Positions 3,960 through 42,259 of a DNA stretch of 42,259 nucleotides are shown here, in pieces (position 1 is the stretch's first letter; each line of letters starts with the position of its first letter). The DNA is from Thermodesulfovibrionales bacterium (GTDB taxonomy: Bacteria; Nitrospirota; Thermodesulfovibrionia; Thermodesulfovibrionales; SM23-35), in assembly GCA_022865525.1 (NCBI GenBank), contig JALHSV010000526.1, positions 1 through 42,259 on the forward strand, written 5' to 3'. The position numbers and the translations under genes are program-made. The notes under the pieces are model-generated. The model searched no databases, was not told where the DNA came from, and worked only from the letters and a program-made list of their open reading frames with translations.

Positions 3960-4421
3960 TTACGCCCCTGCCGAATTATCAACGCTTACATCTACGAATC
4001 CCATCAGCCGCCATACCGAGGTTGTCGTCCCTCCCGTTTCGCATACCCAGACCGTAACATCCCCGGAAGCGGTAGTTATATCCACCGAACTGCCGATTAG
4101 TCTGGTTGCTGCGGAGGTGTCAAAAACAATAGCGCCTTTCGAGATAATAGTAATCCTCTGCCCCGCCACTCCATCGTCAAAGCGGGTAATGGTTAGGCCA
4201 GTGGTATTCGTTAAAAACAGCTTACCCCACTTAACGCTTGGCGTAGCGTCTGAGTCGATGAATGTTATTACCACAGGCGCAATATTTATATCGTTATGTA
4301 TTTGCTTGTGCTGTTTCTCTAATGCCGTGTGGAGTTTGTGCAGGTAGTCCTTCATCGGGCCGTCCGGCACTTTCGTTAAATCAGGTAATGCTAAAGTCCT
4401 TCCTAATTGCATTAAAGCCAT
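3960..4421 (-). CDS. Small virion structural protein (hypothetical), 153 aa
   Basis: ORF coupled to the upstream gene by a 10-nt overlap, lying within the tail module. Confidence 0.5.
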   Translation of the reverse strand: MALMQLGRTLALPDLTKVPDGPMKDYLHKLHTALEKQHKQIHNDINIAPVVITFIDSDATPSVKWGKLFLTNTTGLTITRFDDGVAGQRITIISKGAIVFDTSAATRLIGSSVDITTASGDVTVWVCETGGTTTSVWRLMGFVDVSVDNSAGA

Positions 4422-32545: not shown

Positions 32546-32836
32546 TTAGCATTCAGTTACAATAATTATCCGTTTTTCCTCTGGTATCAATTCCATTATC
32601 TCTTGTAATGTCGGAGGTTCTGCTTCGCCAATCAATTCCTTCTCTAAGCCTTCGCGATTCAAGCCAAATTCGTGAGTATAAACAGGTCTGCCCAATGCTT
32701 CTTCAATAGCTTGATGGAATACACCAAACGGCATACAGAGCTTATCTTCAAATAGTTGGAATTTGGCAATTTCCTCTGATGTTAGGTGTTCCCAAAATCC
32801 TGATCCCGCCAATGTTATTGCTTCTTCTTTGGTCAT
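32546..32836 (-). CDS. Hypothetical protein, 96 aa
   Basis: ORF with the RBS-like sequence GGGAAG upstream. Confidence 0.45.
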   Translation of the reverse strand: MTKEEAITLAGSGFWEHLTSEEIAKFQLFEDKLCMPFGVFHQAIEEALGRPVYTHEFGLNREGLEKELIGEAEPPTLQEIMELIPEEKRIIIVTEC

Positions 32837-32876
32837 AATACTTCCCTATCGTCTTAAACTGTTACCTACTTTAGTT

Positions 32877-32901
32877 AAAAAAATGCTCGTTCTCTCCGAG
32901 C
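32877..32901 (-). terminator. Candidate rho-independent terminator downstream of the tRNA-like RNA
   Basis: Minus strand: GCUCG-gagagaa-CGAGC followed by AUUUUUUU. Confidence 0.5.
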
Positions 32902-33006
32902 TGTCGCGCCTTGTGACCCCGCGTACGGGACTGGCTGCGATATTCGACATAGATAGATTTCACCAGCATACTCTCTACCCTCATTTTTTAACGTCGTTAA
33001 TCGCAA

Positions 33007-33117
33007 CGGCCGAGGCAGGAGTCGAACCTACTGGTGACACCCTACGATTTCAGTCGCCCAGACAAGCAGTACACCTTGGCTTGCTTTAGGGCTGCGTTTC
33101 CCACACGCCGCTCGGCC
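33007..33117 (-). ncRNA. Non-canonical tRNA-like RNA (~110 nt): acceptor, D and T arms present, with an oversized central domain
   Basis: Acceptor GGCCGAG/CUCGGCC (7 bp); D arm GCGU-GUGGGAA-ACGC; T arm GUAGG-UUCGACU-CCUGC; discriminator G. There are 61 nt between the D and T arms and no clean 7-nt anticodon loop. Confidence 0.5.
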
Positions 33118-33486
33118 GTAATTGGGGCAGGCTATGAAAAATTAGCGGATTTTAAGGAGGAGGCCCGCCCCAGTGGTTCAAAAAGGCAGGTGTGGCAGTT
33201 GACCCTTCAAACAGGTTGCCGGTCGCAAGTAAGCTATGTTTGAAGTAGGCTACTCACCTGATTTTATTCGCGATTATTATTCAGGCCGCTTTCTCTGCGC
33301 CGAGCAACTACACACCTGCTTTAGTTTGAAGACTGGCGGGCAGTTTATGTCTCGGTTCAATCTTTTAGCCTTCTGTCTTGCAAAAACATAGAGCGCCCGG
33401 TCAAGATGGCCGAGACTACCTCGCCGGTTTTCTGGATACTGCCGCCGCCAGTCCGATATTCAATCTTTTCAAAGAGCGGTACTGCC

Positions 33487-33984
33487 TTACTTCTTGAGTC
33501 CGGCTTCCATACGCCGGAGGTTGAGAATGAAGTCGGAAAGATTCTCGCGAGACACAAGAATATAGTTACAAGCGTCGTCGTTTTCGTATATATGCAGAAA
33601 CTTGCCGTCTCCACTCCAACTTGCCGAATTACATTCCATCTCAAACTCTTTTATCGGCTTGCCAAGGGCTTCGAGGTCGTCGAAGATGTTGCCTTTTATG
33701 GGTTCGCCTTGATAGGTTGAGCCTATGTTGGTAATAATAAAGTCATTGAGGGCTACGCAGTCTCGGTTTGGGTTATTGTATTCTTTCATAAAAATCTTAA
33801 CTTTCTTGCCATCAAGCCACCAGTCCCCATGCTCTAATGGCTTCGGCTTCTCAGACTCGGCGAGTCGAGATTGAAGACCTGTTCGTAATGATTCCATTAT
33901 TTTTATACTGGCTTTTTGGTCTTCTATTAAATTAGTTGCGGTATTTATACATTCTTTCATTATTTCCAGTTCTTTATTGTCCAT
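33487..33984 (-). CDS. Hypothetical protein, 165 aa
   Basis: Start moved to the ATG at 33984 (AAAGGAAA RBS). Confidence 0.45.
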   Translation of the reverse strand: MDNKELEIMKECINTATNLIEDQKASIKIMESLRTGLQSRLAESEKPKPLEHGDWWLDGKKVKIFMKEYNNPNRDCVALNDFIITNIGSTYQGEPIKGNIFDDLEALGKPIKEFEMECNSASWSGDGKFLHIYENDDACNYILVSRENLSDFILNLRRMEAGLKK

Positions 33985-39244: not shown

Positions 39245-42200
39245 TTATTTCATCTGTTTGTTTGCTTGCTGTGCCACTTTTAATCTCATCGAATCAACTT
39301 TTGCTAATCTTGCCCTTTTCTCTTTATCTGGTATATCCATTTTTATAATAGCCTCCGCTTGCTTATTCAATTTAGACAGGAGTTCGCGGGTCGTCTTCAT
39401 AATCGGCCCCTGTATTATCCCGGGATTTGCCTGCTTAAACTTTTCGGACTTAGCGTATTCCTGCTTTTCCTGTGGAGTCAAAGGCTTTACTGCCTGTTGT
39501 TCGGCGGTCGTTAAGGGTCTTTGCTCTTTTAGTTCCAACAACATATCCTGCTGTTGTTTTCTTGCTATAATGTCCTTATATATCTGGCTATATGTATCGT
39601 AGGCACTTATGACCTTACCGCTGTCCTCGTAGAAATCCTGAATCGACTGAGCCTGTGGGCCTGTAGGTGATCTGCCAACGAATGCTTTTACTACGGGTAT
39701 GTCAGCTAATTCTTTCGGCCTCGCAGGAGGTGCTTCGTCTTTCTTTATTGCGTTTATCAGCGCATCGGTTGCTTGTAAACCGTACCTGCCAGAACCGCCT
39801 GTCCATCCACTTATGAGATTCTCTATCTTTGCCGGACTGTAATTAAGCCATTCACCCATATACTTTGCCGATTCAGATGTGTAACGACTGTATTGGTATG
39901 CAGCGTCAAGGTCTTTCTTGCCTTCGGGAACGATTGGTCTTTCAAGGAAGAAATTGCGATTGCCCCAGTTTTCCATGATAGGCTTTAATGCGGTAGGCAA
40001 AAGGTTTCCTTCCGGCTCGCCACTGATAGGAGTCAGGCTTTCAATGATAGTATCGCCAAAGTCCTTAAATGCTTTCGGGTCCTTTGTAGCTAAATACTCC
40101 ATAAGTCTTTCAGGAAGTGAGCCGTATAACTGGCCCCAGAAAAACGGCTTTATTATATGGATAGGCGACTTGCCTTCTCGCATATACGTCCAGAACAAGT
40201 CTTTTCGCCATCGTGGTATTTCTTTATAATCCTTATTCTTGCGATTATGAAGGTATAAGAGTATTGAAGGAAGAGTAATTGCGGAAAAACCCTTAATGGC
40301 CGTCGATATAGGATGTCTATATGCAGTACGAACATTCTTATCAGCGCCCTGTATCCCCGCATTAAGAAAGGCCACCATACTATTAAGGTCCTTCATCTTT
40401 GCGCCACGCCGTTGAAAGTCAAGAGTACCCTCCCTGCTCTCGAATCCCGCCTCTATCGGGGTCTTGCCCGACTTAACCGCCCTCTTGAACATACCGACTC
40501 TCGTTGCCTGCTCCATTAGCTGAGACAAATCCTGCATAGTGGCTATTGGATTAAGCCTGGCTAACATTCTTCTGGCTCTTGTCGATGTGAGTTCTTTGGC
40601 CGCTTTTTTGAGTGATGGTCTGTTAAGCTCTACAAAGCCGGAATAAGCCCCGCCAGACCTCAGCCAATCATAATAAAGGTCTGTCCTGCCGAGAATATCC
40701 GCAATAGCACCCATCGAGTCATAGAACGGGATAAAGCCAAAAGAAGTCTGCATCAGTCCCGTCCACTGGTCACGGATAGGATTCCTTAATACAAACTCAG
40801 GCGTACTCGTAGCACCTATTCTCAGCCAGTGTGCAGGGTTAGACAGGATTTTTATAACCAGCGACGAACCTTCTTCGTTCAGTCCGGTCATTGCATCGTA
40901 AAGGTTTGGGCTTACCTCGATGTACTTCCGCTTGCCCTTATCGAAATACTCTATGACTTTGCCTTTAGGTGCGAATTGGGACGGCCTGAATATGGTACTC
41001 TCAACAGGTTCCTGTGAAATGATTACATTTTGCGTTTCTTTAATGACTTGCCGGATAGTCTCCGTCGTCATTTCAGGCGTTTCCGCAGATTCACCTTTTC
41101 TTATCTGATTGATAAAACTATTGGCTTCGCCTTCGCTGTACCCTCTTTTAGTCAATGATTCCCTGACCACCTTTTCGAGTTTCTTTATCGGGCCGGATAC
41201 ATCTGCACCCTTACCGCCTTCGGTCTTTATATCCCTAAATTCCTTCATTACCTTCGCAGAGTTTGTTCTGAACTCTCTCGATATGGTAAGTATCTCTTTC
41301 GGGTCAACCTTAATTGGCATCATCTTCACCCGAATAGGTCTTATATCTTCGGGCAGGGCTTTACCAAGTTTCGCTACGTTCCGGGCTACTGTATTCCTGT
41401 CAGCGGCTTCCATTATCCTGAAGGTATTTTTAATAATGCTCTCGATGGGGTCGTGTATCTCTTTCTCTGAGCCTTTTATCTTCTTAACGGGGGCGCGGGC
41501 TTTAGTGAATCGTCCCTTAGATACAGGAACTCCGCCGGCCATCTCGTCACCTAATACCCTATCGAAAGGTATGTAATGCTGATTCTTTGAAAGAATGCCG
41601 TCATACTGCTTCTGGGACAGGTTGCCGCCGTCAACTAACGTATGGAGTACCCTTTTTTGAAATTCATATAGACGCTGTGCGGAATCTTCTAATACCTCCA
41701 TCCCGGCCGGGCCGTACTTTTTCTTTAGTCTCTCCAAGTCCATCTTAGACTTTTGGACCTGTTCGTTACTAACTATATTCTGTTTCGACCAGTCACTTGC
41801 CGGTCTTTGCAGGTCAAGGATAGTCCTCTGTGATTCGAGGTAGGTCTTTAAGTCGGCCTTTCTTTTCTTGCGGGTCTTCTCAAATGGTTTACCTGCCGTA
41901 TCGTAATCGTCCAGGATAGGCTTTAAGCCTTCGCCGGTAATTTTATAAGTACCTTCGGGCATTATCTCGTAGGTTTTGTCCTCTAATACCGACTCCACTT
42001 TACGGCCTAATCCGAGGTAACTTCTCGCCCTTAATCCGGGGTTCTCTCCGGGCTTAATCTCCATACCTAACTTCTGAGCTTTCTTCGTAGTGTTCTCGAT
42101 AGAGGCGAATCGGTTGATAGCGTTCTGATAAATCTTTTCTGCGCCTTCTCGCAATGCCTCCGGGCTTGGTGTTCGTGGCAAACTGAGGAAGCCGCCCTGC

Positions 42201-42259
42201 CTGGCCTTCTCTACCTTTGGAGCTACTGCCCTCTGGAACGGAGCTATGGCTTTTTTAAT
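39245..42259 (-). CDS. C-terminal ~957 codons of the giant virion protein (same gene as 1..2094; open to the window end)
   Basis: The track ORF 39245..42181 begins at a TTG only because no start codon lies further upstream in the window. The frame stays open to 42259 and continues at 2094..1. Confidence 0.8.
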   Translation of the reverse strand: MKKAIAPFQRAVAPKVEKARQGGFLSLPRTPSPEALREGAEKIYQNAINRFASIENTTKKAQKLGMEIKPGENPGLRARSYLGLGRKVESVLEDKTYEIMPEGTYKITGEGLKPILDDYDTAGKPFEKTRKKRKADLKTYLESQRTILDLQRPASDWSKQNIVSNEQVQKSKMDLERLKKKYGPAGMEVLEDSAQRLYEFQKRVLHTLVDGGNLSQKQYDGILSKNQHYIPFDRVLGDEMAGGVPVSKGRFTKARAPVKKIKGSEKEIHDPIESIIKNTFRIMEAADRNTVARNVAKLGKALPEDIRPIRVKMMPIKVDPKEILTISREFRTNSAKVMKEFRDIKTEGGKGADVSGPIKKLEKVVRESLTKRGYSEGEANSFINQIRKGESAETPEMTTETIRQVIKETQNVIISQEPVESTIFRPSQFAPKGKVIEYFDKGKRKYIEVSPNLYDAMTGLNEEGSSLVIKILSNPAHWLRIGATSTPEFVLRNPIRDQWTGLMQTSFGFIPFYDSMGAIADILGRTDLYYDWLRSGGAYSGFVELNRPSLKKAAKELTSTRARRMLARLNPIATMQDLSQLMEQATRVGMFKRAVKSGKTPIEAGFESREGTLDFQRRGAKMKDLNSMVAFLNAGIQGADKNVRTAYRHPISTAIKGFSAITLPSILLYLHNRKNKDYKEIPRWRKDLFWTYMREGKSPIHIIKPFFWGQLYGSLPERLMEYLATKDPKAFKDFGDTIIESLTPISGEPEGNLLPTALKPIMENWGNRNFFLERPIVPEGKKDLDAAYQYSRYTSESAKYMGEWLNYSPAKIENLISGWTGGSGRYGLQATDALINAIKKDEAPPARPKELADIPVVKAFVGRSPTGPQAQSIQDFYEDSGKVISAYDTYSQIYKDIIARKQQQDMLLELKEQRPLTTAEQQAVKPLTPQEKQEYAKSEKFKQANPGIIQGPIMKTTRELLSKLNKQAEAIIKMDIPDKEKRARLAKVDSMRLKVAQQANKQMK
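42119..42259. repeat. Terminal direct repeat identical to 1-141
   Basis: 141/141 identity. Confidence 0.95.

Follow-up and report, generated by a model that had tools for sequence, protein, structure and literature searches.

Phage tRNA genes are usually taken to be helpers in codon usage and, lately, agents of counter-defence. Larger tRNA-associated RNAs also occur in phages, namely GOLLD and ROOL, which lie near tRNAs, the GOLLD linker sometimes embedding tRNAs (PMC12286853, PMC5737381). Among the tRNAs themselves, tRNA-Leu is charged by an enzyme (LeuRS) that requires neither the anticodon nor the variable arm, and E. coli tRNA-Leu variants lacking both arms stay active in charging, a precedent for a tRNA frame that functions with no anticodon arm; G73 in the tRNA-Ser of E. 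coli and Haloferax blocks LeuRS recognition, and in human tRNA-Leu the change of A73 to G alone confers serine acceptance in vitro (PMC9976931). RNAs that mimic tRNA are known as a kind; the family presented here, a tRNA-shaped domain within a phage non-coding module, is undescribed in the resources searched.

The DNA analysed (the window, 42,259 nucleotides) holds a complete phage genome of 42 kb with a 141-nt terminal repeat, apparently that of a non-integrating tailed phage. Scans of the larger ORFs, some 40 in total, against Pfam or PHROGs brought up no integrase, and no aminoacyl-transferase is recognisable in the genome. Positions 32837-33486 form an island of 650 bases, which the original prediction had described as non-coding and as the largest gap; each of the six frames indeed has several stops, and no gap in the minus-strand ORF tiling is larger. 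Small ORFs inside the island (37 aa, 32 aa) run through its terminator and show no conservation in the related loci L028 or L104, and the relatives have no coding sequence there. The minus strand of the whole island folds with z = -3.6 (20 shuffles), the plus strand with z = -2.1 and the tRNA-like piece alone with a marginal z = -1.9. The orphan protein of 165 aa encoded upstream gave an AlphaFold model (mean pLDDT 56.5) too poor for a fold search. Homing endonuclease genes of the HNH type lie near the element and the region is mosaic.

The tRNA-shaped domain, identified by its anatomy, a chance test, its homologues and covariation, has the following parts.

33007-33117, minus strand: tRNA-shaped domain as a whole, 111 nt
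33117-33111, minus strand: acceptor 5' strand, GGCCGAG
Between acceptor 5' strand and D arm, minus strand: C8 G9
33108-33094, minus strand: D arm, GCGU-GUGGGAA-ACGC
Between D arm and long arm, minus strand: A26
33092-33056, minus strand: long arm, GCCC..GGGC, containing an inner hairpin
33092-33088 / 33043-33039, minus strand: complementary strands GCCCU / AGGGU
33084-33062, minus strand: inner hairpin, GCAAGC-N11-GCUUGU
33055-33032, minus strand: extra region, containing a small hairpin
33057-33044, minus strand: small hairpin, GCGA-CUGAAA-UCGU
33031-33015, minus strand: T arm, GUAGG-UUCGACU-CCUGC
33014-33008, minus strand: acceptor 3' strand, CUCGGCC
33007, minus strand: discriminator G, with CCA not encoded

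Every helix that the original prediction had placed on the minus strand was found again at the same position; the acceptor inverted repeat is in fact a perfect 9 bp (ACGGCCGAG/CUCGGCCGU), and the small hairpin GCGA-CUGAAA-UCGU is an addition. The combination of a canonical T arm (5-bp stem, UUCRANY loop and G53-C61) with a directly adjoining 7-nt strand, perfectly paired to a 7-mer that lies 45-125 nt upstream, has a single instance in the window; none of 100 shuffles contains it. The window and all homologues carry the tRNA hallmarks of a 7-bp acceptor, a D arm with G18G19, a UUCRANY T loop and G53-C61. In none of the six distinct sequences, however, did constrained or free folds yield a 5-bp anticodon stem with a 7-nt U33 loop and purine 37, so that the earlier statement that such a loop is lacking was right. 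Lineage-specific hairpins stand where a tRNA has its anticodon and variable arms, which would make presentation of an anticodon impossible. A search of the phage's own genome for antisense targets of these variable arms gave only two 12-nt matches, nothing notable.

At least five further distinct homologues were found on six metagenomic or viral contigs (L028, L104 = L135, L114, L143 and L285); the family, which has at least six distinct sequences, was recovered only after two T-stem positions were relaxed. Exact searches gave no instance of the 24-mer GTAGG..CTCGGCC in IMG/VR or the JGI metagenomes, and none of the 21-nt T-arm-plus-acceptor word in 185,579 species genomes (GTDB). The acceptor stem is identical in all homologues listed, the T arm differs at one position at most and the D arm is of tRNA-Leu type. 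The stretch between the D and T arms (22-85 nt) is not alignable among homologues, and stable extra hairpins of 60-85 nt are present in all but one of the six distinct sequences. Past the D arm, the first hairpin has a loop of 6 nt in L028, L104 and L114 and of 4 or 6 nt in L143; the window and L285 have a long arm there. Between the window and L028, all 31 acceptor and T-arm positions are identical, against 72% identity in the surrounding aligned columns. Neighbouring genes differ among members and no protein partner is common to them, which points to host factors.

Searches by synteny gave no copy of the island other than that in L028; they covered twenty IMG/VR loci with DUF7736 homologues, four with homologues of the 165-aa protein encoded upstream and nine with homologues of the gene downstream in L028. 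In GenBank phages and plasmids neither the island nor the L104 module had a counterpart; what matched was of T-arm size and lay in ordinary phage tRNAs. The pattern GGCCGAGYGGYGT..GGTTCGACTCC retrieved from IMG/VR ordinary tRNA-Leu genes alone, GGCCGAGTGG being their D arm. Translated as a fake ORF and compared with 1.8 billion proteins, the tRNA-like region had one match, a low-complexity repeat protein, which was dismissed as spurious.

The frame common to these sequences covaries, within a small family of at least six distinct sequences and in an alignment spliced by hand in which position 48 is the base just 5' of the T stem. In it, 96.5% of cells are paired and six pairs are changed on both sides, a result reached by none of 500 shuffles. 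The D-stem pair 11-24 changes from C-G to U-A; the tertiary pair 8-14 is U-A in seven sequences and C-G in the window, and 15-48 is A-U in six sequences, G-C in L143 and U-A in the window, which thus bears both tertiary swaps. Acceptor and T-arm pairs are invariant and therefore silent on structure by covariation; RNAalifold on three sequences recovers the tRNA frame. These changes argue that the shape of the tRNA frame is under clear selection, decoding having apparently been given up.

The element was also compared with known RNA classes. With default settings ARAGORN is negative on the window and calls L028 only with a '2-nt anticodon (aa)'; Rfam is likewise without a match in the window, be it at the gathering threshold or with the limit set to E<=10, in accord with the view that this is not a standard tRNA, and no tool found a plain canonical tRNA. 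Against the Rfam tRNA model (RF00005, cut-off 29 bits), L028 scores 42.8 bits and L104/L135 39.4 bits, but only through a local end that skips the anticodon region, and the window, L114, L143 and L285 fall below threshold; of the six distinct sequences, default tRNA finders pick up just one. The leucine identity set (A73, A15-U48, G18G19, U8-A14) is complete in L028, L104/L135, L114 and L285 and complete but for G15-C48 in L143, and the E. coli-type set is departed from in the window at G73, U15-A48 and C8-G14. A tmRNA was rejected, since ARAGORN is negative even in relaxed mode and pair 3-70 is C-G, not G3-U70.

An intron-bearing tRNA was likewise rejected, because in intron mode (-i) ARAGORN assigns each member an isotype and insert position of its own: the window is called Thr(tgt) or Ala(agc), depending on context, and the others Arg(gcg), Arg(cct), Thr(cgt) and Ile(aat), each at its own position. 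Neither Intron_gpI nor a group II intron matched in Rfam in the window (E<=10) or the homologues (E<=1), and the internal loops of the window copy (4 nt, 2 nt) form no bulge-helix-bulge. The ORFs of the phage are long and uninterrupted, so nothing indicates recoding of stop codons. Among the identities first suggested for the island, an intron-bearing or suppressor tRNA is therefore set aside, given the missing U33 arm, the inconsistent ARAGORN solutions and no sign of stop recoding. Nothing speaks for an origin region: there are no iterons and only short scattered repeats, the conserved features being RNA-type helices on the gene strand. A tRNA mimic or structured non-coding RNA gains from the covarying homologues and from the larger module in which the domain is embedded.

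There is good support for placing the tRNA-like domain within a larger non-coding module, about 600 nt long (33473-32864, minus strand), which lies between early genes and is ended by a terminator. The module runs in the order D1 helix, D2 helix, GC hairpin with a CUCCUCC loop, tRNA-like domain, 3' domain and terminator, and its elements outside the tRNA-like domain are as follows.

33456-33473, minus strand: motif UUUGAAAAGAUUGAAUAU, 13 nt beyond the upstream gene's stop codon; a possible 5' boundary or promoter of the module
33331-33453, minus strand: domain D1, long-range helix GACUGGCGG(CG)GCAGU (33453-33438) / ACUGCCCGCCAGUC (33344-33331), enclosing about 95 nt
33183-33322, minus strand: domain D2, helix AAAGCAGGUGUG (33322-33311) / CACACCUGCCUU (33194-33183), enclosing 116 nt
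33124-33171, minus strand: GC-rich hairpin P3, 9-bp helix GGGGCGGGC / GCCUGCCCC, 6 nt upstream of the 5' end of the tRNA-like domain; its 30-nt loop opens with CCUCCUCCUUA (33163-33153), which resembles an anti-Shine-Dalgarno sequence
32936-33005, minus strand: 3' domain, hairpin UGCGAUUAACGAC / GUCGAAUAUCGCA, enclosing 44 nt, from an inverted repeat and the MFE fold
32877-32901, minus strand: intrinsic terminator, GCUCG-GAGAGAA-CGAGC followed by AUUUUUUU, where the non-coding transcript probably ends
32864-32876, minus strand: motif AACUAAAGUAGGU, with a second copy, AACUAAAGCAGGU, at 33326-33314

The two copies of the last motif bracket the part of the module from D2 to the terminator. If up to two mismatches are allowed, the window contains it six times, always on the gene strand, where 1.7 occurrences would be expected, and it is present in L028 too; this 13-mer repeat is the sole part shared within the island, and an internal duplication was rejected. 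The motif TTAACTAAAGTAGNTAACA gave only five AT-rich chance matches in IMG/VR.

How much of the module is conserved depends on the relative. In nhmmer searches the island matched L104 (E 1e-13) and L135 (E 4e-13) over about 500 nt and L028 (E 6e-11) over about 350 nt, the stretch aligned with L104/L135 comprising both long-range helices, the CUCCUCC GC hairpin, the tRNA-like domain, the 3' domain and the terminator; L028 is without D1 and most of D2, and L114, L143 and L285 have the tRNA-like part alone in common with the island. Motifs resembling UUU(U/G)A(C/A)AAnUUAAUAU precede D1-like helices in L104, L023 and L114. The bulged D1 helix recurs in L104 (57-69 / 471-483), where its third inner pair is G-C as against A-U in the window and its loop holds a whole HNH endonuclease ORF. 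The closing helix of D2, around a GCAGG/CCUGC core, is found in L104 (495-508 / 671-682) and L028 (AGGCAGG/CCUGCCU). Hairpins at the position of P3 in L028, L104/L135 and L143 differ in stem sequence and share the CUCCUCC loop; pairing of this loop with a downstream GAGGG motif in the 3' domain was rejected, being above shuffled loops in none of four members. At the place of the 3' domain L028 and L104 resemble each other and not the window, and the modules of both close with a terminator made of a 9-bp GC helix and then AUUAUUU or AAUUUU.

These results lead us to propose, as a well supported reading of the sequences, that the element is a conserved, non-decoding, tRNA-shaped RNA domain descended from a class II tRNA-Leu gene. 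Descent from tRNA-Leu is suggested by the D arm of that type (GCGAAAUUGGUAAACGC in L104) and by canonical tRNA-Leu(UAA) and tRNA-Leu(CAA) genes of metagenomes (L065, L109) that have this acceptor and T arm; the 7-bp acceptor, the T arm with its canonical loop, the G18G19 D arm and the pairs 8-14 and 15-48 have been kept. As to function, we tentatively favour a non-decoding tRNA mimic within a phage non-coding RNA module that would work through its acceptor/T-arm half, the frame being a scaffold for processing and stability. The module would be transcribed with, or following, the upstream early gene; host enzymes that read tRNA shape only might then recognise the domain, RNase P cutting at G33117 and RNase Z or exonucleases trimming past 33007, after which CCA would be added. 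The product would be a stable tRNA-shaped RNA with its own variable arms, and the flanking structured RNAs would gain defined ends, the upstream piece ending in the CUCCUCC hairpin, so that the variable arms and flanks would be the working parts. Two observations sit badly with such a scaffold. Leader and trailer pair in the window, extending the acceptor helix to 9 bp, so that RNase P would not be favoured. The sequence identity of acceptor and T arm exceeds what shape-reading enzymes need, which hints at a sequence-specific partner outside the scaffold model.

A bolder and, we think, somewhat unlikely version is that the family is a new class of phage non-coding RNA, in which an invariant tRNA-Leu frame serves as a natural 'tRNA scaffold' showing interchangeable lineage-specific arms within a multi-domain RNA of 450-600 nt that has room in one domain for a homing-endonuclease gene. 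The arms would be effectors on targets of the host or rival phages, and the frame would provide for RNase P/Z maturation, CCA addition, stability or even charging.

Identity of the acceptor and T-arm sequence across diverged phages, the remainder being free, would also fit mimicry of one target. The element might thus be a decoy or sponge, an acceptor/T-arm mimic of a host tRNA (tRNA-Leu type) titrating a factor that attacks or senses tRNA ends or shape and so protecting translation during infection; 3'-end nucleotidyltransferase/pyrophosphokinase toxins, acceptor-stem nucleases and class II tRNA nucleases are candidate targets. Counter-defence by a phage tRNA is exemplified by T5 tRNA-Tyr, which acts against retron Ec78 (bioRxiv 10.1101/2023.03.15.532788), and the place of the element among early genes, with no conserved partner protein, is in keeping with such a role. 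We nevertheless regard it as unlikely, since the 21-nt word occurs in 0 of the 185,579 species genomes and hence copies no known host tRNA, and since a pure decoy would be expected to shrink, yet most members bear their extra hairpins. It also counts against a decoy that we know of no bacterial defence system that targets the acceptor/T-arm half of tRNA-Leu.

Conservation over about 500 nt with L104/L135 and 350 nt with L028, several long-range helices closing separate domains and the minus-strand folding score would suit a tRNA-like part that is never cut out, built instead into a large structured phage RNA (about 450-600 nt) acting as a unit, for which GOLLD and ROOL offer the precedent. This seems quite doubtful: neither these two nor any other Rfam family matched the window (E<=10) or the homologues (seven related loci, E<=1), the flanks differ between members to the point that three share the tRNA-like part only and L028 dispenses with D1 and most of D2, and the CUCCUCC loop shows no excess pairing with the 3' domain.

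The complete or, in L143, nearly complete leucine identity set of the relatives, together with the indifference of LeuRS to anticodon and variable arm, raises the improbable case of a chargeable, non-decoding carrier, loaded by an anticodon-blind synthetase (LeuRS for the A73 members, possibly SerRS for the G73 window, in line with the known effects of residue 73) and feeding non-ribosomal aminoacyl transfer or occupying LeuRS or EF-Tu. The window, however, alters three identity elements together with pairing kept, which suggests selection on the fold and not on leucine identity, and neither an aminoacyl-transferase nor an encoded CCA is found. A decaying tRNA-Leu pseudogene or attP remnant devoid of function is just as improbable, for although the anticodon region is broken differently in each member, default ARAGORN and Rfam are negative on the window copy and the region is mosaic with HNH genes nearby, decay should strike everywhere equally, yet acceptor and T arm do not vary, and every change in the D stem and in two tertiary pairs is a compensated one. 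An attP, for which the 3' part of a tRNA alone would suffice, is contradicted by the full 5' half, the complete genome with its terminal repeat, the missing integrase match and a 21-mer found in no species genome.

If the non-decoding mimic that we favour is real, a phage lineage preserves a selected tRNA shape, compensatory tertiary changes included, without decoding. A tRNA frame presenting variable arms would be a natural parallel to the engineered tRNA scaffold, and a small, tractable addition to the unexplained large tRNA-associated phage RNAs (GOLLD, ROOL). For annotation, intron-mode finders mislabel members as Thr, Ala, Arg or Ile tRNAs and default finders miss most of them.

Like the present domain, several described elements keep only the acceptor/T-arm half and elbow of a tRNA: the tRNA-like domain (TLD) of tmRNA, bacterial YrlA (Y RNA), mascRNA/MALAT1, the B. 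cereus pseudo-tRNA 'tRNA-Other' and engineered tRNA scaffolds; in them too the anticodon arm is missing or replaced and recognition is by shape-reading enzymes. Unlike tmRNA the present RNA has no G3-U70 and is negative in the ARAGORN tmRNA search, and its arms follow normal tRNA order, whereas those of YrlA are permuted, and it has no Rfam match; none of these families has the present sequence frame or flanking module. With class II tRNA-Leu of bacteria or phages, the minimal variants lacking anticodon and variable arms included, it shares the acceptor, U8/G9, the D arm GCGAAAUUGGUAAACGC (L104), G18G19 and a canonical T arm, and in most members A15-U48 and A73, in place of which the window has G73, C8-G14 and U15-A48; where tRNA-Leu has a 5-bp stem with a 7-nt U33 loop, every member has 22-85 nt of lineage-specific hairpins instead. 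Like GOLLD (RF01998) and ROOL (RF03087) the module is phage-borne, several hundred nucleotides long and made of many closed helical domains, but it matches neither covariance model and its conserved core is much smaller, the best conserved piece here being the tRNA-like part itself, a tRNA shape unable to decode.

The tRNA-like domain of the island (33007–33117, minus strand) belongs to a family in which the tRNA fold is under selection, the features required for decoding are absent and the middle is free to vary. All elements of the original prediction were located at their predicted positions, and no member has a 7-nt U33 loop closed by a 5-bp stem; the lack of such a loop had already been noted for the window copy. 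The combination of a canonical T arm and, directly after it, a strand pairing perfectly with an upstream 7-mer (45–125 nt away) is present a single time in the window and in 0/100 shuffles. Folding of the island against shuffles gave z = -3.6 for the minus strand and z = -2.1 for the plus strand. The non-canonical status was upheld: ARAGORN in default mode called no tRNA in the window, and Rfam gave no match in the window at the gathering threshold and none on the island at E<=10.

Nucleotides 1–141 and 42119–42259 of the window are identical, and the window is therefore taken as a complete phage genome of ~42.1 kb, circularly assembled or terminally redundant. The phage is tailed and carries nearly all of its genes on the minus strand, including those for the major head protein, portal, large terminase, YopX, an HNH endonuclease, a large LPD38-containing protein, a replisome-organiser-like protein and NinG; no integrase or tRNA-related enzyme was seen among the larger ORFs scanned (~40). 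Its capsid protein is only ~25% identical to any GenBank phage. Flanking the island, in the early/replication region, are a 165-aa orphan gene (33487–33984) and a DUF7736 gene (32546–32836); one homologue of the latter comes from a Treponema MAG. The island is closed in all six frames, and no gap between minus-strand ORFs is larger, in agreement with the prediction. Two exactly matching Logan unitigs (L021 and L022, SRR19116067) end either side of 32878–32975, so the assembly of that run breaks inside the island.

Synteny searches via the flanking genes were mostly unsuccessful at yielding relatives of the island. The NCBI metagenome contig L028 was reached through the closest homologue of the DUF7736 protein (83% identity). 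It has a 378-nt gap with homology to the last 350 nt (3' end) of the island (nhmmer E 9e-10), and in this gap lies a tRNA-like element of 76 nt. In acceptor stem and T arm the element agrees with the window at 31/31 positions, against 72% identity in the surrounding aligned columns; U8, A73 and the canonical D loop AACGGUA are present, and its 'anticodon arm' has a 6-nt loop on eight stacked pairs. Exact 24-mer and 21-mer searches found nothing in IMG/VR, JGI metagenomes or 185,579 species genomes. Relaxing two T-stem positions gave at least four more distinct members, every one with the T stem GCAGG/CCUGC.

Further members of the family
L104 and L135, 130 nt: tRNA-like sequence identical in both contigs, downstream genes different
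L114, 134 nt: from the relaxed T-stem scan
L143, 126 nt: from the relaxed T-stem scan
L285, 130 nt: on an IMG/VR viral contig

The family comprises at least six distinct sequences, with no cultured phage among the matches listed and no occurrence of the element in GenBank phages and plasmids; it appears to be rare. In the same scans, a GGCCGAG acceptor stem was also possible in cellular tRNA-Leu, tRNA-Cys and tRNA-Phe genes, and a metagenomic canonical tRNA-Leu(UAA) (L065) and tRNA-Leu(CAA) (L109) have exactly the acceptor stem and T arm of the family. A long variable arm is normal for bacterial tRNA-Leu; the tRNA-Leu(CAA), third in a cluster (minus orientation), is 75 nt long with a 5-nt variable loop and a class I shape.

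All members start with GGCCGAG-(U/C)G, followed in L104, L114, L143 and L285 by a tRNA-Leu-type D arm (GCGAAAUUGGUAAACGC in L104), and end with (G[U/C]AGG)-UUCGACU-CCUGC-CUCGGCC-(A/G). The stretch from D to T arm (22–85 nt) is unalignable and forms one to three hairpins of differing shape. With this middle spliced out, a hand-built alignment of eight sequences (with the base preceding the T stem taken as position 48) has 96.5% of cells paired, falling to 27–44% when partner columns are slid; six pairs are changed on both sides, a number reached by 0/500 shuffles. Covariation among relatives was found in the D stem, where four pairs are informative, and in the tertiary pairs 8–14 (C-G in the window, U-A in the seven other sequences) and 15–48 (U-A in the window, G-C in L143, A-U in six). 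The acceptor and T-stem pairs are neutral on structure because they never vary, save for one T-stem pair changed on one side. Two independent checks agree: the Rfam tRNA model scores 42.8 bits for L028 and 39.4 bits for L104/L135, jumping the anticodon region, and RNAalifold on three full-length sequences recovered the acceptor stem, D arm, T arm and base of the long arm. The window copy has G73 where other members have A73, and both of its tertiary pairs have changed in a compensating way; it is a diverged family member that is still under constraint.

In L028, L104, L114 and L143 the D arm is followed by a first hairpin with AA at the centre of its 6-nt loop (GUAAGU, UGAAAU, AUAAAC and UGAAUA; that of L143 can be drawn as 4 nt), a loop that looks like the tRNA-Leu(UAA) anticodon loop minus one base. 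CUGAAAU is present in both the window and L104.

The suggestion of an intron-bearing or suppressor tRNA had to be abandoned. ARAGORN in intron mode was inconsistent, calling Thr or Ala, Arg(gcg), Arg(cct), Thr(cgt) or Ile(aat) and placing 20–62-nt inserts at positions 33–38; neither tRNA-Thr(tgt) for the window (22-nt insert at 30/31, 8-bp acceptor) nor tRNA-Ala(agc), which arises with slightly different flanks, is credible. Group I and group II intron models gave no match, the internal loops of the window do not form a bulge–helix–bulge motif and the ORF map is without any hint of recoding.

Similarity extends beyond the tRNA-like domain: island positions 142–647 align with L104 (E 1e-13) and L135 (E 4e-13), and positions 293–643 with L028 (nhmmer), while L114, L143 and L285 have only the tRNA-like part in common with the island.

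Parts of the module, 5' to 3' (minus strand)
5' end: UUUGAAAA..UUAAUAU-type motif
D1, 33453–33438 / 33344–33331: bulged long-range helix
Between D1 and D2: AACUAAAGCAGGU
D2, 33322–33311 / 33194–33183: closing helix GCAGGUGUG / CACACCUGC
P3: GC hairpin, always with CUCCUCC in the loop, stem varying by member
A/U-rich spacer of 6–7 nt, then the tRNA-like domain
3' domain
Terminator
AACUAAAGUAGGU, followed by the next gene's ribosome-binding site

The P3 stems include GGGGCGGGC/GCCUGCCCC, GGGGGCUAUC/GAUAGCCCCC, GGGCAGG/CCUGCCC and GGGGG(U)/(G)CCCCC. The D1 helix of L104 (57–69 / 471–483) holds a complete HNH endonuclease ORF (101–463) in its loop, which spans only 95 nt in the window; here a homing endonuclease gene lies within a structured RNA that is no intron. 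Locus L023 carries a homologue of the 165-aa gene, with a D1-like helix and then a U run downstream of it. The 3' domain (~95 nt), common to L028 (3999–4079) and L104/L135 (about 905–985 in L104), shows two double compensatory changes (GUGCC/GGCAC versus GCACC/GGUGC), crosses a 9-bp GC helix in the manner of a pseudoknot and has a U-rich run after it; no Rfam family matches the domain, and AACGAGCAU is its only remnant in the window. The island is thus a mosaic of conserved RNA modules rather than spacer DNA.

A 13-mer, AACUAAAG(C/U)AGGU, occurs at 33326–33314 and 32876–32864, bracketing the part from D2 to the terminator, and at 4082–4094 in L028. Allowing <=2 mismatches, the window has six matches, all on the gene strand, versus 1.7 expected. 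Possible roles for this repeat are promoter, processing site and recombination boundary.

The tRNA-like element forms part of a non-coding unit that ends in a terminator, and the members have no protein partner in common. The retained parts, we infer, correspond exactly to what RNase P, RNase Z, the CCA-adding enzyme, T-loop modification enzymes, EF-Tu and anticodon-ignoring synthetases recognise. That the element is such a tRNA frame and also acts as a processing and stability scaffold is, taken jointly, our leading reading, held tentatively at a little short of even. The frame would be excised from the transcript as an RNA bearing lineage-specific arms, and its excision would give the flanking RNAs defined ends. 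Ranked next, but unlikely, is a decoy for a host factor directed at tRNA: the acceptor and T-arm sequence is invariant, as a decoy would have it, but no matching cellular tRNA exists in the 185,579 species genomes and the large inserts are retained. A permanent domain of a large GOLLD-like RNA is somewhat more doubtful still. We consider it improbable that the element is a chargeable, non-decoding carrier; LeuRS requires neither anticodon nor variable arm (PMC9976931), and the E. coli-type leucine identity set is kept in L028, L104/L135, L114 and L285, but L143 has G15–C48 instead of A15–U48 and the window copy lacks three elements of the set. Equally improbable is a pseudogene or attP remnant, which the constraint pattern contradicts and for which no integrase was found.

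Other tRNA-like loci were encountered in phage sequences. Phage Phass-1 (L027, OQ749652.1) has an unannotated class II tRNA-Tyr(GTA) at 1470–1556, upstream of an annotated tRNA-Gln, and, between this tRNA-Gln and a tRNA-Met (about 1850–1965), a 109-nt tRNA-like element without an ARAGORN call, in which a T arm and an encoded CCA accompany a 7–8-bp acceptor stem (CCCCGCGU/ACGUGGGG). Another degenerate tRNA-like element may lie in a related phage contig (L010, 7495–7580), where the strand after a T-loop-like GGTTCGAATCC pairs 6/7 with GGGTGTC 82 nt upstream; no D arm is visible. No Rfam family or literature match was found for the combination of a tRNA-Leu frame, a replaced anticodon and variable region, a CUCCUCC hairpin and a multi-domain module. 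In kind, both tRNA mimics and large phage RNAs encoded beside tRNAs are already known.
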